Position numbers and translations under genes: made by a program
Notes under the pieces: generated by a model
Databases searched by the model: none
The model's input: the letters and a program-made list of their open reading frames with translations, nothing else
Told to the model about the DNA's origin: nothing
Source: Lobosporangium transversale
Taxonomy: Eukaryota
Length of the DNA stretch: 64,000 nt
Direction: 5' to 3'
Assembly (NCBI RefSeq): GCF_002105155.1
Contig: NW_019028996.1
Span: 682,001 to 746,000, forward strand
Part shown: positions 30,888 to 64,000 of the stretch, in pieces
Layout of the letters: the number at the start of each line of letters is the position of its first letter
Position numbering within the stretch: the first letter of the stretch is position 1

Positions 30888-31106
30888 TGCAAAAGTCAAG
30901 GTAGTGTTCTAGGGGGATCTAAGGGTGCAATAAAGGTATCTTTATTCAGGGGGAACTATGCTACAGAACTAGATAGAAAAGTAGACCTATTTATACTAGT
31001 TAATATCCTGTTGCAAGGAATGCTCTACAAATATGGGCGAAATACTATGTTGCACAAAATTATTATAGTGATTTCGCTTGCATCCTTCCCGTCATGAAGA
31101 AACCTA

Positions 31107-33866: not shown

Positions 33867-33999
33867 AGTATTTCGCCCATATTTCTAGAGCATTCCTTGC
33901 AACAGGATATTAACTAGTATAAATAGGTCTACTTTCTATCTAGTTCTGTAGCATAGTTCCCCCTGAATAAAGATACCTTTATTGCACCCTTAGATCCCC

Positions 34000-35175: not shown

Positions 35176-35911
35176 CCAACATTCTCATGTTATCGAGATC
35201 CATTGGTGTAGGGCCAGAATTATTCTCATGATGGGGTGATAAGGCGTTCGGGGTAGCGGATACAGGGGTGGCATCGATGGGATGTAGAATACTGTGGACA
35301 ATGGTCGCCTGCTCAATGGCATCGTCCAACGTCTCTGGCTGTCTAAGTCTTACCTGCTTGCTTGTTTCGGGCTCAAGGCCTAGCATGTATTTTTGCAAAG
35401 CAGAGTCTTTGTCGAGATTTGTAGCCAGACGTAGGTGGCTTCTAAACTTGCTCGTATATTCTGCCACACTCATCCTTCCCTGACGAAGTTTATCCAACGC
35501 TCGGCGAGCTGCATTCGCAGAATCTGGAGGGGTGAACTGACGGAGGAATGCTTTACGGAAGTCAGCCCAAGGTGTATCGAGATTCAACCCGGAATCTCTC
35601 CACCATGCCTTGGCTTCGCCATTGAGACTGAGGACAGCGTATCGAACCCATTTGGATGGCGTGAGTGTGACAATAGTGTAATACTCCTCCAGGCTGTCGA
35701 CAAAGTTTAAGGCTGCAACAGCGTTAATAGCTCCTTCGTAAGGCGTAGGCTTCTGTGGCTTTAGGACCGTGGCGAGGGTTCTGGCTAGGTCATTCTCAGC
35801 GGCTTCGTTGACTTTAGCAGTAGAGAGGGCCTGATTAAAAGCAGTAGCTATGGCTTCGCGAATGTTCAGAGGAAGATCGATGGACGAAAGGGCGTTATTC
35901 AAGTGTTCCAT
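34991..35911 (-). CDS. gag: Gypsy gag
   Basis: LNGEAKAWW, LRQGRMSVAEY, GPTPMDLD, zinc knuckle CFRCRNRGH. Confidence 0.92.
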   Translation of the reverse strand: MEHLNNALSSIDLPLNIREAIATAFNQALSTAKVNEAAENDLARTLATVLKPQKPTPYEGAINAVAALNFVDSLEEYYTIVTLTPSKWVRYAVLSLNGEAKAWWRDSGLNLDTPWADFRKAFLRQFTPPDSANAARRALDKLRQGRMSVAEYTSKFRSHLRLATNLDKDSALQKYMLGLEPETSKQVRLRQPETLDDAIEQATIVHSILHPIDATPVSATPNALSPHHENNSGPTPMDLDNMRMLVANLYTSLHQQRPNRNHSKPSSLPKLTAAERERCVREGRCFRCRNRGHRAFVHKYNIHAPF

Positions 35912-36555
35912 GGCGAGGGGTGAAATTCAATGGTAATTGTAGTTCTCTGGGGGTGGTCGTGGTTTCCTTTGCTACCAATGCAAAAGTCAAGGTAGTGTTC
36001 TAGGGGGATCTAAGGGTGCAATAAAGGTATCTTTATTCAGGGGGAACCATGCTACAGAACTAGATAGAAAAGTAGACCTATTTATACTAGTTAATATCCT
36101 GTTGCAAGGAATGCTCTAGAAATATGGGCGAAATACAATGTTGCACAAAATTATTATAGTGATTTCGCTTGCAACGCGACTTGGCTTGACAGGCAAACTA
36201 TGCATGGAGGAATGAGTGAAGGAAATGAGCGGAACAAATTAATCAAGCACACGTGATCTTTTTCAGATTCGAATCAGACAAAAGTCATTCATCAATTCAT
36301 GAGCTAGACATTGCTTGCTGTTCGTGACAAAATATCTAATTAACTTTGAAAGTGCATTTATTTTCATTACACATCTATCACAAAAGGCTGTAATAAAGCT
36401 GACCATTTCAAGCTACATTTAAATGTAATGTACTAAGTGCTCAAAGTCCCCAATATACAAAGTAACAGCTATTCAAACAGATCTGCAAAATTATAAAGCC
36501 TATGTCAACAAAATGGGACGTCCGTACAATGTTGGTAAAAAAAATAGAATTGCTG

Positions 36556-40412: not shown

Positions 40413-42464
40413 AAGATTATAGAGTAATACTGACCTGATCTTAACAATGCCTTTTCTGAGTTTCTGTAATGTACTCAGCGTTACAAGCGTTAACCCAACC
40501 GCATCCTCACACTCATTGTTGTTCACGTAGAGACTGTCATTTTCAGGAGCCAAGTCATTCAAACCACTTGGGCACAAAATCGCCTGAACTGCCAGATTAA
40601 TGATGTGTCCAAGGCATGGCCCATGGTATAAGCCATCCTTGAGCGGCCTAATGTTTTTTATTTTTATTTATTTTTATTTTTTTTAAGAGAAGCGTTAGAG
40701 GTAACTCATTACTAGATGCGCTAGCATTATTGAAAGTGACTGAGAATTACCATTCTACTGCCTTGGGATGCTTTTCAAGCTCTCGGATCATTTTGGACAT
40801 ATTTGACGCATTGTCGGTGGTGATACTTAGAAGCTTGTCACCAATTTTAAATCGATCGATGACCTTAGCCAGAGATTCCGCTAAGTTCTCACCTGTATGC
40901 GCTCCATACAATGGCTCAAATCCAATGACCAGCTCTTGTTGGTGCCAGTCATGATAAATCCAGTGAGCTGTTACCCCCAGGAAGTTGTCTTGGAAAGGGC
41001 TTGTCCAGCCATCAACGGTCAGTGATACCTTGTTAATATCCTCAAATAAGCTTATGACTTGATGCTCCATGTATTGGTATTTTAGCTTAGCCTATTTTTA
41101 ATCCATCTTTTTGTCAGTGTTTGGTTGATGTTTGTTATAAAAAAAAAAATAATAATTGAAGAGTAATAATAATCATAATCATAATCATAATCATAGTAAT
41201 AATAGTTTTACCTTGGTTGCCAAGGTGTCATCAGACGGTAGCTTTACTTGAGATGCTGTAGCCATTGTAGCATGGACTAGAAGCTCCTGGAGAGCAGTGC
41301 TTTTGACAATCGTAAATGGCTGCTTTGTTGTGATAACGAATCGGACAAGCAATTCGTCAAATCTCGTAGGGTCAAATACTTTTGGCTGAGAAAATGAATT
41401 AAGCATCTTGTCCATCGGGCCTTGCTTGGAGAGACTGCCATCATTGGCATTGCTATCTTTAGTGATGCGATGTACTCGCCACAGATGCTGGATGACCCCT
41501 GAAGTTGACATATTCGATGAACAAAGGTTTTCCCGCAGCTAGGGTAACAGCAGCGCATACCAGAGCCACTCTTAGTTTTAACACGCTCGGCCCACTTGTT
41601 CTTCAGTGACCACGCCCAGCTTCGGTTGATCGCCGTGCTGCTTGCCACGCTGGAGCTTCCCACGCTCCTCGTCACTAAGCTCTCATTCATCACGCTGCCG
41701 CTCATCACGCTCTCCATATCCATATCGTTGTCAGGTGCGTCAAAGCTGGCAGACATAGAAGTGTTACCAACGTCATAAACCTTAAGTTCATGTATGATAA
41801 AATTGCAAGGAGGTATTAATTTAAACATTAAGGTTAAGTTTTTTCCTTCTTTTCTTAATACAAAGTAATATGGCAAATGTAATCAATATATACTTCTGCT
41901 TCCTCCTCGATAATTCGACGACGTCGTTTACTCATTTTAAGAGATGTTTTGGGCTGAATTGAGATAATGCATGAAAAGGAAAAGAGAGAAAAAAAAAAAA
42001 AAAAAAGGAAAAGGAAAGGAAAGGAGGCGAAATGAAGCGAATGCAAACACATTTGTTGTCCTGATGCCGCAGTTGAGTATTTAGGTATAACGCACCAGAT
42101 ATCTCGCACTCGTTGTTAGGCTTTATTTTCTATAAACATGTGTTTTAACCTTATCTTCATGGTAATATTTTTCTTAATCCACGATTTAAATCCACATTTT
42201 GATTAAGAGTGCCGTGAGAAAAAATTTATAAAAATTTTAATCGGTATATCAATGTACCGAATGATTCGGTATATCAAATGAATTGAATCGGTACAATCGA
42301 GGCACCGAATGATTCGGTTTACCGAATGCATCGAATATTCGATACATTCGATTCGGTTTCGACAATTATATTCATTCGGTTTCGATTCGATATGAACCTT
42401 ACCTTGGTCAATTCGATTTCGGTTCGAAGGTGTATTGAACCGAATGTACCGATTAGGAGCACTG
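40413..42464 (-). mobile_element. hAT transposon, 5' half (TIR, subterminal repeats, BED finger, first catalytic Asp)
   Basis: TIR CAGTGCTCCTAATCG ending 42464; ATTCGGT subterminal repeats; ATG 41935; LTVDGWTS, HTGENLA, ITTDNASNM, CLGH. Clear paralog of the 51757 transposase. Confidence 0.88.
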
Positions 42465-44525: not shown

Positions 44526-45253
44526 GACTACAGTGGTCATCAAAAGTCATTCAATGAATTAGGAATTTCGACATTCTCATTCCTTTCCCAATTTGATCTT
44601 GCTTGTCGCTAATGAAACTTACGTAGCGAGTTCGACCATCGACAATGTCACTCCTACTACAATGTCAATGAGCTCCTGTAGCTAATTGAAAATTTAGATG
44701 AATGCCAATTATTGGCATCTCATTGAATGCCATTTGAAGAAAATCGGGAGCTTTGCTTTATTTGTTTTTTTTTCTGTTCTTCAGTAATGTGTACGACCTC
44801 CTTTCTTGCGATGTAGCTTCTCTACCCTTCGTGGCTGTCACGAACAGCAAGCAATGTCTAGCTCATGAATTGATGAATGACTTTTGTCTGATTCGAATCT
44901 GAAAAAGATCACGTGTGCTTGATTAATTTGTTCCGCTCATTTCCTTCACTCATTCCTCCATGCATAGTTTGCCTGTCAAGCCAAGTCGCGTTGCAAGCGA
45001 AATCACTATAATAATTTTGTGCAACATTGTATTTCGCCCATATTTCTAGAGCATTCCTTGCAACAGGATATTAACTAGTATAAATAGGTCTACTTTTCTA
45101 TCTAGTTCTGTAGCATGGTTCCCCCTGAATAAAGATACCTTTATTGCACCCTTAGATCCCCCTAGAACACTACCTTGACTTTTGCATTGGTAGCAAAGGA
45201 AACCACGACCACCCCCAGAGAACTACAATTACCATTGAATTTCACCCCTCGCC

Positions 45254-46174
45254 ATGGAACACTTGAATAACGCCCTTTCGTCCATCGATCTTCCTCTGAA
45301 CATTCGCGAAGCCATAGCTACTGCTTTTAATCAGGCCCTCTCTACTGCTAAAGTCAACGAAGCCGCTGAGAATGACCTAGCCAGAACCCTCGCCACGGTC
45401 CTAAAGCCACAGAAGCCTACGCCTTACGAAGGAGCTATTAACGCTGTTGCAGCCTTAAACTTTGTCGACAGCCTGGAGGAGTATTACACTATTGTCACAC
45501 TCACGCCATCCAAATGGGTTCGATACGCTGTCCTCAGTCTCAATGGCGAAGCCAAGGCATGGTGGAGAGATTCCGGGTTGAATCTCGATACACCTTGGGC
45601 TGACTTCCGTAAAGCATTCCTCCGTCAGTTCACCCCTCCAGATTCTGCGAATGCAGCTCGCCGAGCGTTGGATAAACTTCGTCAGGGAAGGATGAGTGTG
45701 GCAGAATATACGAGCAAGTTTAGAAGCCACCTACGTCTGGCTACAAATCTCGACAAAGACTCTGCTTTGCAAAAATACATGCTAGGCCTTGAGCCCGAAA
45801 CAAGCAAGCAGGTAAGACTTAGACAGCCAGAGACGTTGGACGATGCCATTGAGCAGGCGACCATTGTCCACAGTATTCTACATCCCATCGATGCCACCCC
45901 TGTATCCGCTACCCCGAACGCCTTATCACCCCATCATGAGAATAATTCTGGCCCTACACCAATGGATCTCGATAACATGAGAATGTTGGTTGCCAACCTG
46001 TACACCTCTCTCCATCAGCAACGACCAAACAGAAACCACTCCAAGCCAAGCTCGCTACCCAAGCTCACAGCAGCTGAACGAGAACGTTGCGTTCGTGAGG
46101 GGCGTTGTTTCAGATGCCGGAACCGAGGTCATAGAGCCTTTGTGCACAAATATAACATCCATGCCCCTTTCTGA
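45254..46174 (+). CDS. gag: Gypsy gag
   Basis: Protein identical to 34991-35911. Confidence 0.92.
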   Translation: MEHLNNALSSIDLPLNIREAIATAFNQALSTAKVNEAAENDLARTLATVLKPQKPTPYEGAINAVAALNFVDSLEEYYTIVTLTPSKWVRYAVLSLNGEAKAWWRDSGLNLDTPWADFRKAFLRQFTPPDSANAARRALDKLRQGRMSVAEYTSKFRSHLRLATNLDKDSALQKYMLGLEPETSKQVRLRQPETLDDAIEQATIVHSILHPIDATPVSATPNALSPHHENNSGPTPMDLDNMRMLVANLYTSLHQQRPNRNHSKPSSLPKLTAAERERCVREGRCFRCRNRGHRAFVHKYNIHAPF

Positions 46175-47165
46175 TCACTCTATTGCTCCCACTGCATCTA
46201 CTTCCTTACATCTACTCTCTAAGTATTCACCTCATCCTGATCCCCATTCCCCTACTCATTCCTCATTGCTAAAAAACAATCCCCTCTCCGACCCTATTTT
46301 CCCCTCCACTGATCCTTTCACTGTTTCCACTTCACTCACTTCCACTCATTCATCTACCCCTAGTTCATCCAATCGCCACTCCCATTGTCGTAACGAAATT
46401 CGCCTTCAATCCTTCAGCCTTACCTATGACAAACATAAAAACTCTCGCCGACTCCTTACTTTCATTGGAGCAGTGAATGGTCGACCTGCGCGCATTCTTG
46501 TAGATGGAGGGGCCGAAGGCAATGTCATAAGTTCCTCTTTCTGCGAGAACACACATGTTCCGCTAATTGAGGGTAGACCCATTCCTGTCATTCTTCCCAA
46601 CGGTACCGAGACAATTGCTCAGCACACAGCCACGTTCACCCTCGCCCGCAACGCGTATCAGGATAAAATCAACGCCATTGTTTATCCTCTATCCAAATAC
46701 GACCTAATTTTGGGTAAACCATGGCTGACGGATATCAACCCTCGCATCAATTGGCGAACAAATGATCTGCATTTTGAATACCAAGGTACCCCGGTCTTGT
46801 GGCCTTGCACTGGCATCGACAGGAAGCCTAGACAGCGATCTTCCGTCATATCTGCTCTTAACTTCCTTACCGTTGCCTCGGAACCTGATGCCTCTGTATT
46901 CCTCGCCCAAGTTCGAGTTCCAGTACCTGTCTCTAGCAGTAGTTCTGAACTACCGGACTCTATCAAGCAAATCGTTCAAGTCGAATTCCCTGATGTCTTT
47001 CCTACAACGCTTCCTGATGGCCTTCCCCCTGACAGAGGTGATAGCATGCGTATAGAGACTGACCCTTATGCTGACCCACCTGTCCGACCTGTCATCAGAT
47101 TGTCGATCGCTGAGCTTGATGAACTGAAGAAGCAGCTAACTGCAAAAGTCAAGGTAGTGTTCTAG
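45990..47165 (+). CDS. Gypsy pol, protease part
   Basis: ILVDGGAEG; one substitution versus copy 1 (YDKH vs YAKH). Confidence 0.85.
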   Translation: MPTCTPLSISNDQTETTPSQARYPSSQQLNENVAFVRGVVSDAGTEVIEPLCTNITSMPLSDHSIAPTASTSLHLLSKYSPHPDPHSPTHSSLLKNNPLSDPIFPSTDPFTVSTSLTSTHSSTPSSSNRHSHCRNEIRLQSFSLTYDKHKNSRRLLTFIGAVNGRPARILVDGGAEGNVISSSFCENTHVPLIEGRPIPVILPNGTETIAQHTATFTLARNAYQDKINAIVYPLSKYDLILGKPWLTDINPRINWRTNDLHFEYQGTPVLWPCTGIDRKPRQRSSVISALNFLTVASEPDASVFLAQVRVPVPVSSSSSELPDSIKQIVQVEFPDVFPTTLPDGLPPDRGDSMRIETDPYADPPVRPVIRLSIAELDELKKQLTAKVKVVF

Positions 47166-47334
47166 GGGGATCTAAGGGTGCAATAAAGGTATCTTTATTC
47201 AGGGGGAACTATGCTACAGAACTAGATAGAAAGTAGACCTATTTATACTAGTTAATATCCTGTTGCAAGGAATGCTCTAGAAATATGGGCGAAATACTAT
47301 GTTGCACATAATTATTAGAGTGATTTCGCTTGCA
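47141..47334 (-). mobile_element. Antisense solo LTR-A inside pol
   Basis: TGCA...TGCA with TSD CTAAC; removal restores KKQLTDLLQK in frame. Confidence 0.95.
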
Positions 47335-50058
47335 CTAACTGATCTTTTACAAAAAGGATTAATCTCACCGAGCACCTCACCATACGGTGCTCCAGTCCTC
47401 TTTGTGAAGAAAAAGGATGGCTCGCTTCGAATGTGTGTTGATTATCGGGGCCTGAACAAGATCACAAAGAAAAACAGGTACCCCTTACCACGGATCGATG
47501 AATTGATCGACAGATTCAGAACAGCTAAATGTTTTACCAAGCTGGATCTACTCTCGGGCTATCATCAAATGCGTGTCCATCCTGATGATAAACACAAGAC
47601 CGCGTTCCGAACTCGCTATGGCCACTACGAGTTTAACGTCGTACCTTTCGGTCTTACAAATGCACCTGCAGCGTTCTCGACTATGATGCGTAACGTACTT
47701 GATCCACTTCTTGATAAATGTGTTGTTGTGTATCTCGATGATATTTTAATTTACTCCGATAACGAGAAAGATCACTTAGAGCACATCCGAAAAGTACTCT
47801 CCCTCTTGCGTCAAGCTGGGCTTTATTGTAAATTATCCAAGTATTCCTTCATGCAGGAAGAGACTGAGTTCCTAGGCCATGTCATATCCAAGGATGGACT
47901 CAAGACGAATGGCGGACTTGTCAAGGCAATAAGGGAATGGCCAGTACCAACAACCCAACGACATGTGATGCAATTCCTTGGTTTGACTAATTTTTACCAT
48001 CAGTACATTTCTCATTACGCTGATATTGCTCTTCCCCTCACACAATTGTTAGGCTGCAATAAGGAATTCCACTGGGGAAAATCTCAACAAGACGCCTTTG
48101 AGACTTTGAAAAGAGCAGTGAGCTCAGCACCAGTTCTTAGGATATTCGATCCTGCCCTCTCTACAGCAGTCGAAACAGACGCTTCAGGCTTTGCAATTGG
48201 TGCTGTCTTGTTCCAGACGGACCAAAATGGTGAATCACGACCAGTAGCTTTTACTTCACGCAAGCTCAACCCAGCGGAACGCAACTATCCTACACACGAA
48301 CAAGAACTGCTGGCTGTGGTGCATGCTCTGAAGACATGGCGATACTACCTTGATGGTTCTCACTTTGTCGTTTATACCGACCATGCCACTCTACAACATT
48401 TTCCTAGCCAGCCGAACTTGACTCGCAGACAAGCAAGATGGATGGAGTTGCTTCAAGAGTATGATTTCGTATTCAAGTATAAACCTGGTAAAGATAACGT
48501 CGTCCCTGATGCTCTTTCACGAAGACCGGACCTCAAGGACTTGGAGGCTACACCTACTACTTTGAACTCCTTGGTTATCAATCTAGACCCTGGCATTCGA
48601 AAACAACTAGCCAGTTGCTACCTACACGATCCAATTCTAGGTCCCCTCGTGCATCAGTATAAGGATGCCTCTACCCCGGATCGTTACTTCGTGGTAGATG
48701 GTCTACTCTGGATCAACGCTGGACAAGGCCCTCGCCTCTGCATACCCAAGGACGACGGACTCCGTTCACAACTCTTGCATGACGCTCACGACGCTCCTAT
48801 ATCAGGCCACTTGGGACTCGATAAAACGTACAGTAGCATGCGACGAACATATTTTTGGCCACGCATGGCGAGGGATATAAAAAAATACATTGCTTCCTGT
48901 GAGCAATGCCAGCGTAACAAGCCTTCACTAAAGCCTCCTGCAGGGCTTTTCCAACCTTTGGCAATTCCAAGCCAACGATGGGATACTGTAACAATGGACT
49001 TCATTGTCAAGCTTCCGAAGACAGCCAGAGGTTTTGACGCGATTACGGTCTTTGTGGACAAACTGTCCAAGCAAGTTCATTTCTGCGCTAGCCGAACTAC
49101 CGACACTGCCTCTGATGTTGCACGACTCTTTTTCGACAATGTTTTTAGACTGCACGGCATGCCTCGGACAATTGTGTCAGATAGAGATTCACGTTTCACC
49201 GGCAAGTTCTGGACAACGTTGATGAAGCTCATGGGCACCAAACTTAACATGTCTACTGCCTTCCTTCCACAATCAGACGGACAAACAGAGCGCGCCAACA
49301 GAACATTAGAAGAAATGCTCCGCTCTTACATATCGTACAAGCAAAACGACTGGGATCTTTTACTGCCTATGATGGAGTTCGCATACAACAACTCTGTCAA
49401 TCCTACGACAGGCTTCTCCCCATTCTTTCTGAACTATGGTCACCATCCACTAGTCCCTGGATCTCTTTTAAAGCCACCTGATACCAATGTTCCGGCTGTC
49501 AGTGATTTTGTTCGAACCCAGTCGATGAATTTGGCGCTAGCTCAGGATGCCATCATCGAAGCGCAGAATAGGCAAAAGGCCCAAGCGGACAAAACTCGCA
49601 GGCCTGCTACGTTTGCTGTGGGTGACATGGTGCTCTTAAGCTCGGAAAACATCTCTGTCGCGGGACATAAAAATAGGCCGTCGCAGAAACTGGAACCTGA
49701 GTACATAGGCCCTTACAAGATCATTTCGAAGGTCAATGAAAATGCCTACAAGCTGGAACTACCGCCTGACATGCATCAACATCCAGTCTTTAATGCCGAT
49801 CTGCTTCGCCCCTATATTGAGTCACCTCGTGAATTCGGCGACCGCTTACCACCACGCCCTGCCCCCGAGCTTGTAGATGGAGAAGAGGAGTATGAAGTCG
49901 ACAAAATCATTGACTTCAAAATGTTTGGCAAAACTCCTAAGTGGCTCGTTCTTTGGAAAGGCTATCCATTAGATGAAGCCACTTGGGAAACAAAATCTTC
50001 GCTCGCAAACGCTAAAGAGGCGCTTGCCGTCTTTGAGGCTTCAAGAAAAACAAGATAA
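47299..50058 (+). CDS. pol: Gypsy pol, RT-RNase H-integrase-chromodomain part
   Basis: Same 919-aa ORF as copy 1; the first ~12 codons come from the inserted LTR. Confidence 0.95.
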
Positions 50059-51295
50059 TAGGTTTCTTCATGACGGGAAGGATGCAAGCGAAATCACTAT
50101 AATAATTTTGTGCAACATAGTATTTCGCCCATATTTGTAGAGCATTCCTTGCAACAGGATATTAACTAGTATAAATAGGTCTACTTTTCTATCTAGTTCT
50201 GTAGCATGGTTCCCCCTGAATAAAGACACCTTTATTACACCCTTAGATCCCCCTAGAACACTACCTTGATTTTTGCACGCGTCTCCTAGTTTTCTAGCTC
50301 CGTGAATAGCTCCAAGGATTCTAGAAGAGCTATAAACCAATAACCAAGACTTATAGTGCCAAGGAACCTTGCAATAAGATTGCACCAGATATCTTCCTCG
50401 GATCCTGTGTATTAAGTTAACTCAACACTTGAAGTTCCGCATATGGTAAAAGTCCTTAGGAAATATTTGAGTAAGCTTTATTTAGAGTTCTTGAAGCGCG
50501 TCTCCGCTTCAGTCAAACAAGTATAAATATGATAGATTTGTAACATAGTAAACCTCAGTCTGCAATAAAACTATTCTTGAATCTCCTAAGCTCATTTTTG
50601 TTCCTAAATCACTTACCTTCTCTTGCAATTGTCCTGTCAGTCCTTGACGGTAATTGCACGCGAGGTTGATACGGGTATATTTAGATCCATTCTGGCAGTT
50701 CAAGAATACATCAGATCGAGCAGTGCTCCTATTCGAACCATTCGAATCGAATTCGAATAGATATCAGGATTCGAATGCTATTCGAACCGCTCGAATGATT
50801 CGAGCCATTCGAACCGTTCGAATGATTCGAACCATTCGAACCATTCGACATTCGAACCATTCGACATTCGAACCGTTCGAATGATTCGAACCATTCGAAC
50901 CATTCGACATTCGAACCGTTCGAATGATTCGAACCATTCGACCCTCGAATCATTCGAACCATTCGAACCATTCGACACTCGAACCATTCGAACCATTCGA
51001 TACACGATAGGAAATGGTAATTCTAAACTTGTGTTTGTAGTTTTCATTATGTTTCATCTCCTGCCTTATTTCTCTTTCCTTCTTTTTCCTCTTTTGCCTT
51101 TCTTCCTGTGGTTCCCCGAAATTTAATCAAATAAAAGACTACCCCTTTTAACTTATTCATGCATGATTTGGTTTGAACTTGTTGCTCTTTTTTTTTTTTT
51201 TTTCCTAATTTCCTAATTCCCACGCCAATTAGTAGTGTTATCTTAATCTTTTTCTTTCCGTTTTTTTTTTTTTCTTTCATTTACTGATTATTTTC

Positions 51296-51756: not shown

Positions 51757-54431
51757 ATGACAAAGAGCAGCCGACGCCGTATTGCAACTTCTGAAAGCGA
51801 GGAGGAAGAGCATGAAGAAGAGGTAAATATTAACTACTTTGACAACATACTGTGACTGTTAAGAAAGATAGTTAACCTTAAAAACTTTTTAACGGTTCTA
51901 TGACACTTTGATGGATTTAAGGTTAATGATGTGAGTAATATGTCTATGTCGACCACTTTCGACATCACTGACGGTAGCATGGGTACGGAAAGCATGGGAA
52001 GTGTCAGTATCAGTAGCAAGAAAGGCACCCGAGTTTGGGGGTGGGCCATTAAAAACAAATGGGCTGAACGCGTTGAAACAAAAAAAGGCGCAGTCATACG
52101 CTGTCGTTTCCCTGGCTGCAAGATGGAATATACGTCAAGTACGATGACAACCAGTGGAATCAATTCACATTTGGCTAATAAGCACCATATTAGAAAAGAT
52201 AGCCACGTGAATGATGGTAGCCTCTCCCGGCAAGGCCCATTGGATGTAATGTTTTCTTCTTCTCCAAGGGTATTTGACCCTACAAGATTCGATGATTTGC
52301 TTGTGCGTTTTGTCGTTACGACGAAGGAGCCATTCGCTGTTGTAAAGAGTGCAGCTTTTCAAGAGCTTCTAAATCATGCAACAATGGCCGCAATGGCTCA
52401 AGTCAAGCTCCCCTCAGATGATACCATGGCAAACAAGGTAGCTCTCCTTTTTCTTCTACTCCACTTTTTTTGGCTTTATTTTTTTATTATTTATCTATTA
52501 TTATCATCTTTATTTATTTCTACGTTATTACTTTCCCTCCACTGGAGCCTAACAAAGTTTACTAATTTGAAATAGACGAGACGAAAATATGATGATATGG
52601 AACAAGAAGCGATTGCCTTATTTGAAGGCATCAATAAGATTTCATTGACTGCTGATAGCTGGACAAGTCCTTTTCAGGACGACTTCTTAGGAGTCACGGC
52701 TCATTGGATCGACAAGGATTGGCGCCAAAAAGAGCTAGTGATAGGGTTTGAGCCTCTACTCGGAATGCACACAGGCGAGATGCAAACGTGTTATACAATA
52801 CTGACTCAAACCTTTGAGGAGGGCTCAACTATCACGCGCACCCCAGGCGCCAAGACGCCAAGCCCAAGTGCCAAGACACCAAGCCCCAACCCTATCAATT
52901 ATCAGTATAAATAGTCCACTACGTTATAGCCAAATAAAGTATCCTTTGACCTTCGATTCCACCTAAGATCACCTTTGATTGTTACTATTTACACGAGAAC
53001 CTCGCCGAAGCTCTCGTCAGTGTTATTAAGCGCTTTAAAATTGGCGATAAGCTCCAAAGCATCACTACCGATAACGCATCAAACATGACCAAAATGGTGC
53101 GAGAAGTTGTGAATCATCCCGAAGCAGTTGAATGGTAAACAATTGTACTACTGAACTAACTTTGGCTTCTATAATAGTTACATGTCTCTAACTTTGGTAT
53201 TTAAAAAACTACGATTAGGCCACTCATAGATAACCTGTACCATATACCATGCCTTGGTCATATTATAAACCTGGCTGTACAAGCAATGCTAGGTCCTAAC
53301 GGCTTAAATGATCCAGCCCTTGAGAATGACAACGGCTACTCTGACGATAGTGGGGACGAAGACACAATTGGGTCGATGGAAGTAACGCTAAGCACATTGC
53401 AGAAGCTGAGGAAAGGCATCATGAAGATCAGGCAAGTATTTCGATATGATTATGATAGCAAATAACATGGGTGACAGGAAACTCAGCTAACCATCGGTTA
53501 CATTTACCACTTGCTGTGTAGATCATCACCGCAAAGGATGTATCAGTTTGGCCGTGTTTGTGATATTGTGAAGAGCCCAAAGCTTGAGTTGATAAGGGAC
53601 AACAGAACACGATGGAACTCTACTTCCACAATGGTTGAAAGAGCAATAACTCTAAAAGATGCTTACCAGTCTATGTGTAAGAACGAAGCTATCCTAGCGC
53701 CATACATTCTGAAGGATGAGGAATGGCTATATCTTCAAAAGCTCCAGTTGTTGCTTAGTCGATTCGTCGCTATCACTAACATCGTGTCTTCCAGCGTGGG
53801 TTATCCGACGATTAACCGAGCAATGTCCGTATACAACTTAATGATCGATCATTTAGAAGAGTTTATTGAAGAAGAAAAAGACCCCTCACTTAACCAGGCG
53901 GCAAGTCAGGGATTACAAAAGCTTCTGAACTATTATTCTAAAACAGATACCACCTCGGTTTATGCAGTAGCCACTGCCATGGATCCAAGAATGCGATTTA
54001 ACTGGTGGGAGGTAAATGACTGGGGTGTATACATCGAAAGCAGCAAAAATATGGTGAAAGAGGTATGGGAAAAAGAATACAAAGGAAAAGAAGGCCCCGC
54101 CCAAGTGCCTGCTGACCAAGAGTATGAAATGAAGCTCTATGGAATCAGTACGCAAGCTGGAGAGCTTGAAGAGTATGTCCGTGAAGGAAGTTCGCTAGTT
54201 GCCAGCAAGCAGGAGCCTCCAGAGTTGGTGCACTGGCGCTCGCAGAATGAACGCTGGCCCAATTTAGCAAATATGGCACGAGACTACCTCGCTATACCTG
54301 TGACATCGACCCCAGCTGAACGTTGTTTCTCCCAGGCTAAGTTCATTATGTCCGCTGAGAGAAATAGTCTTCTCCCTACAACGATCCAACGATTAGTAGT
54401 TTTGGATTCTTGGTTGAAAGAGATGTCTTGA
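51757..54431 (+). pseudogene. hAT transposase (spliced), interrupted by a solo LTR
   Basis: BED finger VWGW..CRFPGC..HLANKH, LTADSWTS, ITTDNASNM, CLGH, TRWNST, ARDYLAIPVTSTPAERCFS. Confidence 0.9.
52781..52993 (+). mobile_element. 213-bp solo LTR of a third family
   Basis: TGCAAA...TTTACA, TATAAATA, AATAAA, TSD CGAGA; removal restores HTGENLAE. Confidence 0.9.
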
Positions 54432-56073: not shown

Positions 56074-56420
56074 CAGTGCTCCTATTCGAACCTTTCGAAT
56101 CGAATTTCACTGATATCGAATTCGATTCGAATGAGGTAAGCTCAAATTCGATTCGAATTCGATTAGATAACAAAATTCGAATGCTATTCGAATGGTTCGA
56201 ATGATTCGAGCGAACTATTGGCACAATAGTAAATGATAATTTTAAACTTTTTTTTTTATTTTTTTTTGATTGGGTGTAAAGTACAAGGACCATACTTTCG
56301 CTACGCGTAACCAGAGGCCCTATTCGAACCATTCGAACCATTCGAATCGAACCAGGATATGGCTTATTTGAATCGATTCGAATTTATCACGATTCGAATT
56401 CGAATCGAATAGGAGCACTG
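56074..56420. mobile_element. 347-bp non-autonomous hAT (MITE) nested in the parent hAT
   Basis: Same TIRs as the parent; TSD GACATATA, left copy split by the Tc1 insertion. Confidence 0.9.
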
Positions 56421-56721
56421 GACATATATAGTTTTCTAAATAAGAGTAAAAGTATCTCTCAAAACTAGCAAATCAAATAAAACTTTTTACAATACAACTC
56501 TGAACCAGGGTTATGAACTATATCACCCCTACCACTTCACAATTCAAACCACCACGCTCCTATTCGAATCATTCGAACCATTCGACACTCGAACCATTCG
56601 AACCATTCGAACCATTCGACACTCGAACTATTCGAACCATTCGAACCATTGGAATCGAACCAGGATATGGCTTATTCGAAGCTATTCGAATTCGAACCGT
56701 TCGATTCGAATAGGAGCACTG

Positions 56722-58608
56722 AGTAGGTGTAGCCTCCGAGTCCTTGAGGTCCGGTCTTCGTGAAAGAGCATCAGGGACGACGTTATCTTTACCAGGTTTA
56801 TACTTGAATACGAAATCATACTCTTGAAGCAACTCCATCCATCTTGCTTGTCTGCGAGTCAAGTTCGGCTGGCTAGGAAAATGTTGTAGAGTGGCATGGT
56901 CGGTATAAACGACAAAGTGAGAACCATCAAGGTAGTATCGCCATGTCTTCAGAGCATGCACCACAGCCAGCAGTTCTTGTTCGTGTGTAGGATAGTTGCG
57001 TTCCGCTGGGTTGAGCTTGCGTGAAGTAAAAGCTACTGGTCGTGATTCACCATTTTGGTCCGTCTGGAACAAGACAGCACCAATTGCAAAGCCTGAAGCG
57101 TCTGTTTCGACTGCTGTAGAGAGGGCAGGATCGAATATCCTAAGAACTGGTGCTGAGCTCACTGCTCTTTTCAAAGTCTCAAAGGCGTCTTGTTGAGATT
57201 TTCCCCAGTGGAATTCCTTATTGCAGCCTAACAATTGTGTGAGGGGAAGAGCAATATCAGCGTAATGAGAAATGTACTGATGGTAAAAATTAGTCAAACC
57301 AAGGAATTGCATCACATGTCGTTGGGTTGTTGGTACTGGCCATTCCCTTATTGCCTTGACAAGTCCGCCATTCGTCTTGAGTCCATCCTTGGATATGACA
57401 TGGCCTAGGAACTCAGTCTCTTCCTGCATGAAGGAATACTTGGATAATTTACAATAAAGCCCAGCTTGACGCAAGAGGGAGAGTACTTTTCGGATGTGCT
57501 CTAAGTGATCTTTCTCGTTATCGGAGTAAATTAAAATATCATCGAGATACACAACAACACATTTATCAAGAAGTGGATCAAGTACGTTACGCATCATAGT
57601 CGAGAACGCTGCAGGTGCATTTGTAAGACCGAAAGGTACGACGTTAAACTCGTAGTGGCCATAGCGAGTTCGGAACGCGGTCTTGTGTTTATCATCAGGA
57701 TGGACACGCATTTGATGATAGCCCGAGAGTAGATCCAGCTTGGTAAAACATTTAGCTGTTCTGAATCTGTCGATCAATTCATCGATCCGTGGTAAGGGGT
57801 ACCTGTTTTTCTTTGTGATCTTGTTCAGGCCCCGATAATCAACACACATTCGAAGCGAGCCATCCTTTTTCTTCACAAAGAGGACTGGAGCACCGTATGG
57901 TGAGGTGCTCGGTGAGATTAATCCTTTTTGTAAAAGATCAGTTAGTGCAAGCGAAATCACTCTAATAATTATGTGCAACATAGTATTTCGCCCATATTTC
58001 TAGAGCATTCCTTGCAACAGGATATTAACTAGTATAAATAGGTCTACTTTCTATCTAGTTCTGTAGCATAGTTCCCCTGAATAAAGATACCTTTATTGCA
58101 CCCTTAGATCCCCCTAGAACACTACCTTGACTTTTGCAGTTAGCTGCTTCTTCAGTTCATCAAGCTCAGCGATCGACAATCTGATGACAGGTCGGACAGG
58201 TGGGTCAGCATAAGGGTCAGTCTCTATACGCATGCTATCACCTCTGTCAGGGGGAAGGCCATCAGGAAGCGTTGTAGGAAAGACATCAGGGAATTCGACT
58301 TGAACGATTTGCTTGATAGAGTCCGGTAGTTCAGAACTACTGCTAGAGACAGGTACTGGAACTCGAACTTGGGCGAGGAATACAGAGGCATCAGGTTCCG
58401 AGGCAACGGTAAGGAAGTTAAGAGCAGATATGACGGAAGATCGCTGTCTAGGCTTCCTGTCGATGCCAGTGCAAGGCCACAAGACCGGGGTACCTTGGTA
58501 TTCAAAATGCAGATCATTTGTTCGCCAATTGATGCGAGGGTTGATATCCGTCAGCCATGGTTTACCCAAAATTAGGTCGTATTTGGATAGAGGATAAACA
58601 ATGGCGTT
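56722..58608 (-). mobile_element. Gypsy copy 3, internal fragment (end of protease, solo LTR 57946-58138, RT-RNase H)
   Basis: Near-identical to 32609-34494; bounded by a hAT TIR on the left and a PLE pseudo-LTR on the right. Confidence 0.93.
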
Positions 58609-58663
58609 TGATAAGTAGGATGGGTTTTTTTGTGAAAAAGTGGAAAAAGTGACTGAGAGTGAG

Positions 58664-58722
58664 AAAGAAGACTGCGGGACAAGTGCTTGTTTCGATCTTT
58701 TCTCTTCAGCCTTGTCTTCTTT
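58664..58722 (-). ncRNA. Type I hammerhead ribozyme, copy 1
   Basis: aaagaagac-aa-gg CUGAAGA ga-aaaga-uc GAAA caag-ca-cuug UC cc-gca-gucuucuuu. Confidence 0.88.
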
Positions 58723-59060
58723 TTATACTTTTTTCACGCCTCTCGGACTCTCGGGAGAGAGGGTGAACGGTAACCCAAAAAGGAATCATTATCCAAATCG
58801 GGTCTCATCCGGAAACTCCTAGATTGTTTCAGATTGAGTCAGTTATGACGTAAGATCTAAAATTAATCTAAGTATAGATTACAAATAATTTATCCGAACG
58901 GTTAGACTAAAAAAGGAAGGTCTAAGTCCGAAAAAATCCTAGGATATATGTATCATTTCCGTGGTACGCGTCGACCTAGCAAACAGGTTTATTTGGAGCC
59001 AGCAAACCAGTTATTTGTGGCTTTCTACTCCTTAACTAGGGTCACGTGACAAAATTTATT

Positions 59061-59197
59061 TTTAGGTATCTATTTTTAGGGTCTATTTTTAGGGTTTTTT
59101 AGGGTTTTTTAGGGTTTTTTAGGGTTTTTAGGGTTTTTTAGGGTTTTTTAGGGTTTTTAGGGTTTTTTAGGGTTTTTTAGGGTTTTTTAGGGTTTTT
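59061..59197 (+). repeat. Telomere-like tract ending in about 10 regular T5-6AGGG units
   Basis: Mostly TTTTTTAGGG from 59095. Confidence 0.93.
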
Positions 59198-59251
59198 GAT
59201 AAGTAGGATGGGTTTTTTTGTGAAAAAGTGGAAAAAGTGACTGAGAGTGAG

Positions 59252-59310
59252 AAAGAAGACTGCGGGACAAGTGCTTGTTTCGATCTTTTCTCTTCAGCCT
59301 TGTCTTCTTT
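59252..59310 (-). ncRNA. Type I hammerhead ribozyme, copy 2
   Basis: Identical to copy 1. Confidence 0.88.
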
Positions 59311-59648
59311 TTATACTTTTTTCACGCCTCTCGGACTCTCGGGAGAGAGGGTGAACGGTAACCCAAAAAGGAATCATTATCCAAATCGGGTCTCATCCGG
59401 AAACTCCTAGATTGTTTCAGATTGAGTCAGTTATGACGTAAGATCTAAAATTAATCTAAGTATAGATTACAAATAATTTATCCGAACGGTTAGACTAAAA
59501 AAGGAAGGTCTAAGTCCGAAAAAATCCTAGGATATATGTATCATTTCCGTGGTACGCGTCGACCTAGCAAACAGGTTTATTTGGAGCCAGCAAACCAGTT
59601 ATTTGTGGCTTTCTACTCCTTAACTAGGGTCACGTGACAAAATTTATT

Positions 59649-59749
59649 TTTAGGTATCTATTTTTAGGGTCTATTTTTAGGGTTCTATTTTAGGGTTTTT
59701 TTAGGGTTATTTTTAGGGTTTTCTTTTAGGGTTATTTTTAGGGTTAGGG
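59649..59749 (+). repeat. Element-encoded degenerate telomere-like tract
   Basis: Irregular TnAGGG units ending TTAGGG; same sequence at 63821-63921. Confidence 0.9.
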
Positions 59750-59905
59750 TCAAGGAGGGTCAGCTCTGGCCTATACCATGAACCTGAGAAAACTCCTAAA
59801 AAATCTAAAGAAAACTTACTAAGTCTAAAAAACCGGACCTATTTTGTCGGGGATGAGGGCTAGTTATAATATAAGATACAGAAGAGATCTCATTGAACTA
59901 GTCAT

Positions 59906-61411
59906 CTACAATCGACTCCTTATTGGGGCGGATTGGAGAATCTTTTTATTATAGGTGTTCAACTGGTTGCGCAGGTTGGAGCCTTTATAAATTATCCATG
60001 TGGTTTGTGTATTCTCATAACGGGCAGGTTTGAGGGTATGGATATCTCGTAGAATCATACGTCCAAACTGTTCAAGTTTGTCACGTCCAGGGATGTTATG
60101 GAGGAACATTTTTTTGATAATAGTATCATTTTTCTGAGACGAGGGTGCCGGGTACAAAAGAGTATTCCGTTCATCGTATGAGTGTAATCTGAGTTGATTG
60201 TTGATTACATGTGAGGGGTAGTTTCTATTAAGAAGATGTTGGGCAAATTGTGCTGTGGCATGGGTGTGGAAAGAAGACTGACTAGAGTTTCTAATTAGTC
60301 TTTGGTTTTCACCATTAATCCAGTTAAAAACATATTTCCTAGGGTAGTATGTATCTGGATCAGTGTATAGGTGTTTATTAACGGGTTTGTCGAAAGGAGC
60401 AATAGTAAATCGGGTTGGACTAGTATTGTTATCGACAGAAATAAGAAGGTCGAGCATAACTACTTGTTGACCATTGTTACCATGGTCGATAGTGATATTA
60501 AGACTTTGACAAGAGGCATAAATCTGATGAAGTTTAATGTCAATGTATGGTTTCAAAAGATTGAATGTCTCTTTAGACCAGGGAAGGTTATCATGTTTGG
60601 TAGTTCTGATTATGGCAAAGCCATCATCTATATACCGGAACAGGGTGATGTCAAAGAAATCGAGTTTATAGAAAAACATTGGGGAATTAGTGTCAACTGG
60701 AAGGTTGTCAGGAAAAACTCCATGGAATTGTTGTTGTTTCTCTACGCAGCATGCAAAGAGGCGGGCTATGGTGGGTGCCATGGGAGTTCCCATAGCTAAG
60801 CCTTTGACTTGTCTGTAATTATTTGTAAGGTCAGAGACAAGGCAGTTCTTATTAACCCATTCTGCGAGTTTCAGACATATTTGGATTTCATAATTGTAAG
60901 AATGATTGCAGAAGTAGTGTAGTATGGTTTTTCTGGCTTCTTCAAAGTCGATGTTACCATACATGTTGATGACGTCGAAAGCTGCTAATGAGTAATGGCA
61001 GTAAGGATCAAAGTCAAAATTTTCTAGATAACGTATTAGTGTGGGGGTGTCGGGAAGATCTCTAGGGAACTCATTAAGTAGAGGGCGCAGGTTTCTATCG
61101 ACAAACTGACTAATAGTGTGTGTTATCCAAGGGAAAGAGGGGACTATAGGTCTAGCACCGGGTGGTGACTTATGTATTTTAGGTAAAAGATACATAACTG
61201 GGACAGTATAGAAGTTAGGATTGGTTCTAACATTATCTCTTATTAGTTTAGCTTCTGAGAGTAATTTATTTTTAATTCTAAGAGGACTAAGATTGACTAT
61301 AGAAAAGAGTGAGTTTATCATATTGTCAATGGAGAACGAAGGGCACGGGACATAACAGGAAGTATCTGTTAGAAGTTTCGTAGTCTGGGATGTATACCAG
61401 TCTAGGTCCAT
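59906..61411 (-). CDS. Penelope-like reverse transcriptase with no GIY-YIG endonuclease; true N-terminus lies further upstream
   Basis: YLLPKIHK..RPIV, FDVINMYGNI, QVKGLAMGTPMAP, FRYIDDGF, MLDLLI, KPVNKHLY; ORF ends after the thumb with no GIY..YIG. Confidence 0.93.
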   Translation of the reverse strand: MDLDWYTSQTTKLLTDTSCYVPCPSFSIDNMINSLFSIVNLSPLRIKNKLLSEAKLIRDNVRTNPNFYTVPVMYLLPKIHKSPPGARPIVPSFPWITHTISQFVDRNLRPLLNEFPRDLPDTPTLIRYLENFDFDPYCHYSLAAFDVINMYGNIDFEEARKTILHYFCNHSYNYEIQICLKLAEWVNKNCLVSDLTNNYRQVKGLAMGTPMAPTIARLFACCVEKQQQFHGVFPDNLPVDTNSPMFFYKLDFFDITLFRYIDDGFAIIRTTKHDNLPWSKETFNLLKPYIDIKLHQIYASCQSLNITIDHGNNGQQVVMLDLLISVDNNTSPTRFTIAPFDKPVNKHLYTDPDTYYPRKYVFNWINGENQRLIRNSSQSSFHTHATAQFAQHLLNRNYPSHVINNQLRLHSYDERNTLLYPAPSSQKNDTIIKKMFLHNIPGRDKLEQFGRMILRDIHTLKPARYENTQTTWIIYKGSNLRNQLNTYNKKILQSAPIRSRL

Positions 61412-61498
61412 AATAGTGAGTCCTAAGTTTTTTATCAGCAGGGAATGATAATTTATTCGAGGTCATTAGATTTCTGTAGGATTTTTTTTTTTTTTTTA

Positions 61499-62752
61499 TT
61501 AATTATGGTTTGTAGCATCGAACAGAACATTAGCTAGATTAATATCTAGTTTATTAATATTCCTACAAAGTTGGTTACGCAATTTCTTTAGTTCTGAGCT
61601 CAGAACAACATAGTTGGGAGGTTTATGTATATTGAAATTGACTCCTTTATTTAAGACTTGAAGAATATCATGGGGGATGGATTGTACGGAAGACATATTG
61701 TTGACTCCGACAAAATCATGTAAATCTACTTTTTTTGTTTCTGAGGGGATGGGGCTTTTTTCACGGGGCCTTTTCCTTTCTTTACATGGGTGGTTTTCTT
61801 GGAGGACGTTGGGGGACCACCTTTCTTCTTGTCTTTCTTCGCCATCGATGGGCCTTTTGGTCCTTTGTATTTGTTGGTGTCGTTCTGTCGACGTGATGGC
61901 TTGGGTTTGCTTGGCTTCTTCTTCGAGGCGTCCTTCTTGGTATTCTAGAGGGAAAGTAGAGTTGATCTTAGAATAGATTATATTTAATCGTGGAGCAAAC
62001 CAAAGGGAAACAATTATCTTGAATACCTTTAATCCAAGATTTAATTGCTGGAATTCTGCAGTGGCTCGTAATACTTGCACTTGAGCAGAAAACTCAATAG
62101 CAGTGGCACGAATCAGCTTGTAGGTGAAGTCTTTACCCAGATTATTCAGATGAGAATTGTTTTCAACGGCCACAAGGGCAGATGAAAGGGTGTCCGCTAG
62201 CTGTCTGGGGAGGGTGTCATTGAGTTCACTTTGGCATTGTTGGATGATATTTGCTTTGTCAGCTTTAATGGCCGATACTAACAAATTGTCAAACGAAGTG
62301 CTAAGTGTAGCAAGGACGTCCTTTGACAGGGTAACACGGTTATTGTTGACAGTAAGATGTCCCCAATAGCCTAGTTGTGTCTTAGCGTTGACTTCACGCA
62401 GAATCTTCTGAGCCATTCGGATTTTATCCAAAAGAATGGCCGCCTTATTGACAAATTTGCTTAAGATGTCTGCGGCAACCCTGTCAGTCATCGTTCCCTT
62501 TTTGAAAGAGGGAAGATAGGAACCAGGGTTCAGAGAGGTGTCACTATTCCCAATATGATTATTGAGACGAGCGACGAGCTGCTCGAGGGTGGGAAGGTCT
62601 GCCGGTGCAGTCCCTCCTCCCATCTCGGCATCGGCATCGATCATAGCCTGACCTGGAACTTGTTGACCTGGGGTGACTTGGAAGACATCCTGGTTTCCAC
62701 GGGCAGAGCTTGACGATGAGGAGGGGCCGGGGGCAGCGTGAGTATTGACCAT
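61499..62752 (-). CDS. PLE ORF1 (helical protein; probable intron 61945-62026 gives a basic tail with stop at 61726-61728); the unspliced frame runs into the RT N-terminal region
   Basis: ATG 62752 just after the pseudo-LTR; unspliced C-terminus VNNMSS..LQVLNKGVNF resembles the pre-RT motif of PLEs. Confidence 0.7.
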   Translation of the reverse strand: MVNTHAAPGPSSSSSSARGNQDVFQVTPGQQVPGQAMIDADAEMGGGTAPADLPTLEQLVARLNNHIGNSDTSLNPGSYLPSFKKGTMTDRVAADILSKFVNKAAILLDKIRMAQKILREVNAKTQLGYWGHLTVNNNRVTLSKDVLATLSTSFDNLLVSAIKADKANIIQQCQSELNDTLPRQLADTLSSALVAVENNSHLNNLGKDFTYKLIRATAIEFSAQVQVLRATAEFQQLNLGLKVFKIIVSLWFAPRLNIIYSKINSTFPLEYQEGRLEEEAKQTQAITSTERHQQIQRTKRPIDGEERQEERWSPNVLQENHPCKERKRPREKSPIPSETKKVDLHDFVGVNNMSSVQSIPHDILQVLNKGVNFNIHKPPNYVVLSSELKKLRNQLCRNINKLDINLANVLFDATNHN

Positions 62753-62830
62753 CTTGAGAGGAACTTGAGGGTTTTTGATAAGTAGGATGGGTTTTTTTGT
62801 GAAAAAGTGGAAAAAGTGACTGAGAGTGAG

Positions 62831-62889
62831 AAAGAAGACTGCGGGACAAGTGCTTGTTTCGATCTTTTCTCTTCAGCCTTGTCTTCTTT
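62831..62889 (-). ncRNA. Type I hammerhead ribozyme, copy 3 (5' pseudo-LTR of the full element)
   Basis: Identical to copy 1; predicted cleavage after GUC, between 62845 and 62844. Confidence 0.88.
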
Positions 62890-63227
62890 TTATACTTTTT
62901 TCACGCCTCTCGGACTCTCGGGAGAGAGGGTGAACGGTAACCCAAAAAGGAATCATTATCCAAATCGGGTCTCATCCGGAAACTCCTAGATTGTTTCAGA
63001 TTGAGTCAGTTATGACGTAAGATCTAAAATTAATCTAAGTATAGATTACAAATAATTTATCCGAACGGTTAGACTAAAAAAGGAAGGTCTAAGTCCGAAA
63101 AAATCCTAGGATATATGTATCATTTCCGTGGTACGCGTCGACCTAGCAAACAGGTTTATTTGGAGCCAGCAAACCAGTTATTTGTGGCTTTCTACTCCTT
63201 AACTAGGGTCACGTGACAAAATTTATT

Positions 63228-63368
63228 TTTAGGTATCTATTTTTAGGGTCTATTTTTAGGGTTCTATTTTAGGGTTTTTTTTAGGGTTATTTTTTAGGGT
63301 TTTTTTTAGGGTTATTTTTAGGGTATAGGGTTTTTTTATTTTTAGGGTTATTTTTAGGGTTATTTTAG
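63228..63368 (+). repeat. Degenerate telomere-like tract between pseudo-LTRs 3 and 4
   Basis: Starts like the encoded tract, then diverges into irregular TTATTTTTAGGG-type units. Confidence 0.9.
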
Positions 63369-63423
63369 GATAAGTAGGATGGGTTTTTTTTGTGAAAAAG
63401 TGGAAAAAGTGACTGAGAGTGAG

Positions 63424-63482
63424 AAAGAAGACTGCGGGACAAGTGCTTGTTTCGATCTTTTCTCTTCAGCCTTGTCTTCTTT
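63424..63482 (-). ncRNA. Type I hammerhead ribozyme, copy 4
   Basis: Identical to copy 1. Confidence 0.88.
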
Positions 63483-63820
63483 TTATACTTTTTTCACGCC
63501 TCTCGGACTCTCGGGAGAGAGGGTGAACGGTAACCCAAAAAGGAATCATTATCCAAATCGGGTCTCATCCGGAAACTCCTAGATTGTTTCAGATTGAGTC
63601 AGTTATGACGTAAGATCTAAAATTAATCTAAGTATAGATTACAAATAATTTATCCGAACGGTTAGACTAAAAAAGGAAGGTCTAAGTCCGAAAAAATCCT
63701 AGGATATATGTATCATTTCCGTGGTACGCGTCGACCTAGCAAACAGGTTTATTTGGAGCCAGCAAACCAGTTATTTGTGGCTTTCTACTCCTTAACTAGG
63801 GTCACGTGACAAAATTTATT

Positions 63821-63921
63821 TTTAGGTATCTATTTTTAGGGTCTATTTTTAGGGTTCTATTTTAGGGTTTTTTTAGGGTTATTTTTAGGGTTTTCTTTTA
63901 GGGTTATTTTTAGGGTTAGGG
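63821..63921 (+). repeat. Element-encoded degenerate telomere-like tract of the next copy
   Basis: Same as 59649-59749 and followed by the same tcaaggagggtcagctctgg 3' UTR. Confidence 0.9.
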
Positions 63922-64000
63922 TCAAGGAGGGTCAGCTCTGGCCTATACCATGAACCTGAGAAAACTCCTAAAAAATCTAAAGAAAACTTACTAAGTCTAA

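Follow-up and report, generated by a model that had tools for sequence, protein, structure and literature searches.

The DNA analysed here (the window) is a 64,000-nucleotide (nt) stretch of Lobosporangium transversale contig NW_019028996.1, and its right-hand end holds a head-to-tail array of a Penelope-like element (PLE) that has no endonuclease (EN). From left to right, a broken gypsy pol is followed by pseudo-long terminal repeat (pLTR) 1, a tract of telomere-type repeats, pLTR 2, a repeat block, the 3' untranslated region (UTR), the reverse transcriptase (RT), ORF1, pLTR 3, a partial block, pLTR 4, another block and the 3' UTR of the next copy (Table 1). One unit of the element, ~3.63 kb long, thus reads pLTR, 5' UTR, ORF1-RT frame, 3' UTR, C-rich telomere-type block and pLTR. 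An earlier reading of the same DNA (the sequence-only reading) had described four near-identical pLTRs, units in a single orientation and the start of a further copy at the window edge, and all of this was seen: the pLTRs are 448-449 nt long with 0-1 differences in all six pairwise comparisons, every unit has its coding strand on the minus strand, and the next copy begins at the edge. The partial tandems that form pLTRs, a hallmark of PLEs, are therefore present.

The host gene for anoctamin at 7024-7545 is 98% identical to a Lobosporangium transversale protein, and its next relatives come from other Mortierellaceae; judged from such sequence matches, it is well supported that the host of the array is a member of the Mortierellaceae, an early-diverging fungus. 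We compared the window with short-read runs through their contigs, which often drop rare joints and cannot show ends or levels. Runs X2, X4 and X6 are DNA, X7 is RNA by guess, and X8 is another sample under the same species label. Two relatives at the DNA level, L001 and L002, were taken from metagenome contigs (2 of 463 candidate stretches), L002 being picked by its RT motifs alone. Neither a metagenome search with the single window RT nor a search of viral contigs with the RT alignment returned related loci.

ORF1 and the RT share one frame, and the stops that separate them in the window surround a poly-T run; two stop pairs fall within 61433-61514. At the majority depth of the family, the X2 contig has 130 letters in place of these 82 (+48), and X4 and X6 have one T fewer at 61428. 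Because the net change is +48, the frame is kept and the 39-codon spacing of both DNA relatives is restored; 20 of these codons were seen in loose contig ends and the other 19 were not seen. In X4 and X6 there is also a loose end at 62766; it duplicates letters of a different loose end and was judged to be a misplacement. On the strength of these comparisons the stops between ORF1 and the RT are local sequence damage, and with the damage corrected the ORF1-RT frame comprises ~964 codons. Two independent open reading frames (ORFs) were rejected on these grounds. The sequence-only reading had named an ORF1 and an RT; both are present, not as two separate frames but as one shared frame in which ORF1 is split by an intron, and neither the ribozyme nor the intron switch described below was part of that reading.

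An X7 contig skips 61945-62026, a segment with GT..AG ends as read on the coding strand; the three DNA runs show no such skip. Its removal shifts the frame and gives an ORF1 of 314 amino acids (aa), whose last 72 residues include 27 K or R. The corresponding introns of L001 and L002 are 100 and 94 nt long and have the same AAG/GT donor; like 82, both lengths are 1 mod 3, and the spliced product of each relative yields a homologous basic tail that is 42-61% identical. The unspliced frame is also conserved. It is open in five of the seven closest proteins (992-1016 aa), with K-V at the donor position, the other two being shorter, and it is likewise open in L002, where shuffles of its own codons leave it open in ~2 of 10,000 cases. 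Across the three DNAs, codons at risk of forming a stop end in T at 0 of 61 sites, versus 27 of 87 safe sites (Fisher p=8e-8), and L001 and L002 differ at about half of their third positions. From the sequences, the case for the read-through frame is weak in the window alone and strong with the relatives. We infer that unspliced RNA would encode ORF1-RT and spliced RNA the short ORF1. A structural model of ORF1 exon 1 shows three long helices after a disordered start (overall pTM 0.34), and a protein atlas gave no usable match for this exon. In the X7 contigs ORF1 is well covered, the RT patchily, and most of the pLTR is uncovered; one contig ends at 61642 beside an AATAAA at 61651-61646. This pattern was set aside as evidence because contigs cannot show ends or levels.

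The RT lies on the minus strand, at 59906-61462 in the window as read. It carries an N-terminal LNKGVNF (GxxF-type), a DKN motif (DKG/DKN class), a core with YIDD and a thumb, all of the PLE type. Pfam had no match for the window RT or ORF1, a sequence search of the PDB with the single RT had none, and a profile search against the PDB gave weak matches to TERT (E ~0.25). The 29 first-round RT relatives include PLE-type proteins, some of them with GIY-YIG tails, and the protein atlas placed the window RT with eukaryotic RT clusters at 0.96. No GIY-YIG-like motif was found in the six frames of 58600-64000, in L001 or in L002, and a similar motif search flagged 34 of 143 relatives; Pfam GIY-YIG was likewise absent from all seven clade proteins, while the control P0141 scored. 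We also built an AlphaFold model of the RT on 100 sequences (pLDDT 91.6). In a VIA fold search of 48,161 chains the top two hits were telomerases, with Z 15.4 (rmsd 4.5, 330 aligned) and Z 15.0 (rmsd 3.6, 250 aligned), ranking above a viral polymerase (13.7), TERT and R2 (13.6), Ty3 (11.6) and LINE-1 (11.3). In a tree of 101 rows (99 of the 143 relatives, the window RT and the gypsy RT) the window RT fell into an eight-row, EN-less DKN clade (SH-aLRT 99), separate from a large DKG clade that holds most of the EN-bearing rows. A LINE or LTR identity for this RT was rejected.

We searched both window strands with a type I hammerhead descriptor and obtained exactly four matches, one per pLTR, compared with none in 3000 shuffles; a search of Rfam (E<=10) brought up no hammerhead. 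L001 and L002 preserve the core and every one of the 17 pairs, and changes occur in them at unpaired positions only. A telomere-complementary nonamer, AAAAACCCT, is invariant in the window, L001 and L002 (3/3); it lies 68-77 nt after the cut and just before the start codon, and it is likely the priming site. A reverse-complement telomere stretch just 3' of the hammerhead, a trait of EN-deficient PLEs, is therefore present. In the available portions of the relevant papers, a hammerhead with an adjoining telomere-complementary stretch is the published arrangement for telomere-attaching PLEs (PMC8557442, PMC6431247, PMC4209133).

The tracts after the pLTRs consist of T5-8AG3 repeats on one strand only. 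The motif TTTTAGGG has 35 matches on the plus strand of 58601-64000, compared with none on the plus strand and one on the minus strand of 1-58600, and the ORFs run away from the 3' end of the G-rich strand, as in EN-deficient PLEs. The block that follows pLTR 2 matches the one after pLTR 4 letter for letter over 135 nt, and both are therefore element-encoded; L001 and L002 have a repeat block in the corresponding position. In tracts 1 and 3, only the outer portions look as if they had been added afterwards. G-rich tracts after each pLTR, as the sequence-only reading had it, were thus found on the plus strand only, and two of the four are encoded by the element and are not added telomere repeats. 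The idea that telomerase made all four tracts was rejected. Both truncated copies end within the element's repeat block, and a uniform T5-6AGGG run is distinct from this degenerate block. The joint of pLTR 2 lies exactly at the nonamer complement, the joints of pLTR 4 and pLTR 1 show just a few matching letters, and a few T/TGAT letters are shared with the pLTR end where pLTR 1 meets gypsy. The host telomere motif is here taken, provisionally, from these tracts alone. A U-rich stretch of the 3' UTR pairs with the C-rich block in all three minimum-energy folds (window 59753-59905, L001 3640-3885, L002 3195-3454); as a hairpin masking the repeat block it was not significant (z -1.38, -1.99 and -0.05) and is a weak lead.

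Copy numbers were estimated from contig depths set against joints at ~125 (X2) and 8.5 (X4); the estimates are rough, as depth is not copy number. They amount to 14-18 ORF1 parts, 21-22 RT parts and 35-39 pLTRs, and the similarly rough ratio, ~2.2-2.5 pLTRs to each full copy, agrees with the window. Outside the damaged stretch, no other letters appear in the main contigs. Near-identical pLTRs and roughly 14-18 near-uniform full-length copies fit the recent activity that had been proposed for the element. A second, diverged PLE variant with mostly synonymous changes was seen in X4 and X6 on 61130-61443, at about single-copy depth; of the 29 sites at which this low-depth variant differs, 20 are third positions, and the codons concerned comprise 16 synonymous and 8 non-synonymous ones. 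In X8 the sole pLTR end (58607-58724) has 14 differences in 118 nt, and the six listed are all C>T, several of them in the ribozyme. Such a C>T-rich end suggests, as far as its letters go, host mutation of a silenced family, and the X8 share of 0.00 is no proof of absence.

The motifs, the fold (closest to telomerases in the VIA search), the hammerhead with the nonamer and the Mortierellaceae host make it well supported that the element is a PLE lacking EN, that it has telomere polarity and that its host is an early-diverging fungus, and to this extent the sequence-only reading, including its RT with PLE motifs and no GIY-YIG domain, was borne out. Beyond this, we think it probable that the array consists of an EN-less PLE in head-to-tail order, with a hammerhead and a nonamer for each terminal repeat, that it likely extends chromosome ends, and that its RT would be made only from intron-retaining RNA. 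In the mechanism we propose, splicing of the 82-nt intron (seen in one RNA-like run) would shift the frame and yield the ORF1 with the basic tail, and unspliced RNA would be translated as the ORF1-RT fusion, which selection on the frame suggests to be the sole way in which the relatives can make a complete RT. The RT would then act on its own parent RNA, and new copies would keep the intron: if only unspliced RNA makes RT, then only unspliced RNA would be copied, and introns would therefore be retained in PLE copies. The nonamer would pair with the G-rich chromosome end, or a few of its bases with a broken end, as in the published model and as matches the joints, and cDNA would be written outward without DNA cutting. 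The end may later be trimmed back, or synthesis may stall, within the element's repeat block; host telomerase could add repeats there, and the next copy could prime on them. The array may in this manner act as the builder of the chromosome end.

Several points weigh against this reading. On the coding side, the splice evidence is one contig in one run that is RNA by guess, and the ORF1-RT fusion protein is a product predicted from sequence. The window alone would have an open fusion frame in ~4% of own-codon shuffles (p=0.049), the three DNA sequences have common ancestry, and P0098 (the protein of L001) and four other long proteins were selected as long ORFs. Foldseek puts Prp8 level with TERT, and the tree is a quick search whose rows include no named Athena, Coprina or TERT sequence. 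The self-cleavage of the hammerhead is likewise a prediction, and the hammerhead lacks covariation support, in either direction, because its pairs never vary among the window, L001 and L002. As for the chromosome end, there are no telomere repeats between gypsy and pLTR 1. No contig bridges this joint in X2 or X4, whose depth there is fully explained by two repeat contigs; contigs often drop such joints. Sequence errors are present in this part of the window, the left edge of the array could be misassembled, and the window ends inside the array, so that the terminus lies outside it. Finally, the telomere-motif literature searched, including the available part of the PMC10100673 supplement, gave no motif for Mortierellaceae.

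We also considered other explanations. The template may be a unit-length RNA cut by the ribozyme and then circularised or jumped, with the RT priming at the internal nonamer and running more than once round; we regard this as a genuine possibility, though not the one we favour. Because pLTR 3 passes without a seam into the 5' UTR and has the same sequence as pLTR 2, the full copy extends over more than a single unit and across a hammerhead cut site, and the nonamer, 68 nt 3' of the cut, would be missing from the 3' end of a cut linear RNA. The ends of the L001 contig (1-123 and 3888-4010) also overlap by 123 nt, giving a 3887-nt unit in tandem or circle, and circular RNAs have been published for retrozymes in the portion of that literature available. 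However, an uncut read-through RNA accounts for these joints too, an X7 contig passes from a pLTR end into C-rich repeats, and cleavage by PLE hammerheads was weak in vitro in the part of the source available (PMC4209133). It seems unlikely that the array is not terminal, whether as a healed internal break, as a buried former end or through an assembly join of a terminal array onto gypsy. The bare gypsy joint, its absence from the X2 and X4 contigs and the nearby errors would fit such a history, whereas the strict G-strand polarity, the uniform repeat run between copies, the nonamer at joints and a total of roughly 20 RT-bearing copies, a number that chromosome ends could hold, would not.

Two further explanations concern the coding region and the telomere repeats. 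The intron might simply be spliced, with translation of the RT beginning at an internal start, or on an RNA of its own, and the open frame an accident of A-rich coding. Immediately ahead of the RT motifs the window does have a Met, at 61696, and exon 2 as a whole is poor in T; however, all six full-length relatives have Ile in place of this Met, the avoidance of T is specific to sites where it would create a stop, and two more distant relatives are plain fusions without an intron-like segment, so that we hold this explanation to be improbable. We find it very improbable that the element has replaced telomerase, its RT also writing the uniform repeats from its own block or from read-through RNA. 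Each unit does carry telomere-type repeats, and the X7 contig joins a pLTR end to them, but the uniform run is unlike the degenerate block, and X8 has only a mutated pLTR end yet shows such repeats at high depth. An arrangement of telomerase plus PLE has moreover been published, according to the available part of PMC13159263. Returning to the head-to-tail, EN-less PLE read through its retained intron, we would go further and propose a previously undescribed clade of telomere-attaching PLEs that sets ORF1 against ORF1-RT by intron retention beside a dual-coding exon and so is one-ORF and two-ORF at once; in our judgement this proposal is evenly balanced.

Table 1. Features of the PLE array and of the gypsy fragment that it adjoins (window positions)
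Feature	Positions	Strand	Remarks
Fragment of a broken Ty3/gypsy pol, the target that the array adjoins; outside the element	56722..58608	-	reverse complement of gypsy copy 46671-48558
pLTR 1, 3' end of a short truncated copy	58610..59057	-	
Type I hammerhead in pLTR 1, predicted cut after 58678	58664..58722	-	descriptor search
Tract: 39 nt of element, then ~10 uniform T5-6AGGG repeats, likely added post-truncation	59058..59197	+	
pLTR 2 (full copy, 3' pLTR), joined at AGGGTTTTT; hammerhead 59252-59310	59198..59645	-	
Element-encoded block of degenerate, telomere-complementary C-rich repeats	59644..59752	-	identical in copy 4; same place in L001, L002
3' UTR between RT stop and tract	59753..59905	-	
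RT part of PLE type: LNKGVNF at 61654, DKN motif, core with YIDD, thumb; no endonuclease	59906..61696	-	
Locally damaged stretch of the window: poly-T run, spurious stops	61433..61514	n/a	130 letters in short-read contigs
Dual-coding exon 2: 72-aa K/R-rich ORF1 tail (spliced) or ORF1-RT linker (unspliced)	61726..61944	-	
82-nt GT..AG intron, stop-free in the fusion frame	61945..62026	-	skipped in X7 contig, not in X2, X4, X6
ORF1 exon 1 (242 aa), predicted to form three long helices behind a disordered N-terminus	62027..62752	-	
Telomere-complementary nonamer AAAAACCCT, likely priming site	62768..62776	-	68 nt past hammerhead cut, 24 nt before start codon
pLTR 3, the 5' pLTR, seamless with 5' UTR; hammerhead 62831-62889, predicted cut after 62845	62777..63224	-	
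Element tract, 57 nt identical, then similar; terminal few repeats likely later additions	63223..63368	+	
pLTR 4; hammerhead 63424-63482	63369..63817	-	
Tract of the element, followed by the beginning of the 3' UTR of the next copy; truncated at the window edge	63816..64000	-	

The 33 kb preceding the array are rich in transposons (gypsy, hAT and Tc1). Near-identical copies of a chromodomain Ty3/gypsy element lie at 44992-50277 (+), ~31000-36200 (-) and 56722-58608 (-), with pol interrupted at the same point; in the intact copy Pfam recognizes RT, RNaseH, integrase and chromo domains. In two copies the insert in pol proved to be a piece of the same element's LTR, ~198 nt long and inverted; in the third copy it lies at 57939-58136. 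The majority short-read contig skips the insert, with seven shared end letters. The segment 54439-56072 is a Tc1/mariner-type transposon; its inverted ends measure 218 nt (99%), and its DDE transposase frame is open. A TTCGAA-rich palindromic repeat family with inverted ends, MITE-like in appearance, was found at 50721-51000 and 56074-56721. Relics of hAT transposases stand in opposite orientations at ~40750-42030 and 51900-54431. We also noted P-loop-like and nuclease-like ORFs at 21773-22992 and 36556-38179, which we take to resemble Crinkler-type genes.

Among living systems, EN-less PLEs come closest to a model of the retroelement from which telomerase arose, and the expression of their RT and the keeping of their introns are open questions; both can be tested in a family that is compact, young and multi-copy and whose intron switch, ribozyme and nonamer are defined. 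If true, the switch would explain simply why PLE copies retain their introns. Neither the class of the present element nor its polarity, ribozyme or telomere pairing is new; the conserved expression switch is possibly undescribed. In polarity and tandem end-capping the element resembles HeT-A, TART and TAHRE of Drosophila, whose RT class (non-LTR) is unrelated and whose host lacks telomerase. It likewise recalls copia, where splicing sets the ratio of structural protein to polymerase fusion and the RT class (LTR) is again unrelated. Our literature search, limited to available portions of the sources and with the 2007/2017 primary papers and the supplements of PMC8557442 and PMC13159263 outside its scope, found no telomeric PLE of Mortierellaceae and no intron-retention switch; the available part of PMC8557442 calls the significance of intron retention in such elements unknown.

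The comparisons that follow likewise draw on the accessible parts of the papers cited. [quoted passage not shown] In those elements a frameshift and pseudoknot may part ORF1 from RT (PMC8557442, PMC6431247), whereas here intron retention would do so; rather than a separate or frameshift-joined ORF1 and RT, the window and six relatives show in-frame read-through. Unlike the giant Terminon units with their accessory ORFs, the present unit of 3.6 kb (3887 nt in L001) has no cargo genes. The hammerheads of fungal telomere-associated PLEs are also type I, occur in both pLTRs and have a helix III long enough for monomer folding (PMC4209133), whereas here helix II has 2 bp only and helix I has 2+9 bp with an internal loop.

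A close analogue in layout is Coprina-1_Alen of Ascochyta lentis, one of the Coprina elements of fungi, a diatom and a clubmoss (PMC13159263). Common to both are the lack of an endonuclease, the DKN, RT and thumb regions, coil and disorder in ORF1, direct terminal repeats, telomere repeats at joints and a single orientation (PMC13159263). Coprina has also been found in one isolate and was missing from another, which may be compared with X8 (PMC13159263). The present element differs in its Mortierellaceae host, to which it extends the telomere-attaching PLE group, in its internal repeat block and in an innermost joint without telomere repeats. Athena is described as two-ORF and Coprina as typically one-ORF, with Coprina-1_Alen having two (PMC13159263), whereas here a single unspliced frame is accompanied by a second product obtained through the 1 mod 3 intron and the dual-coding exon. 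This calls into question the number of ORFs as a discriminator between Athena and Coprina.

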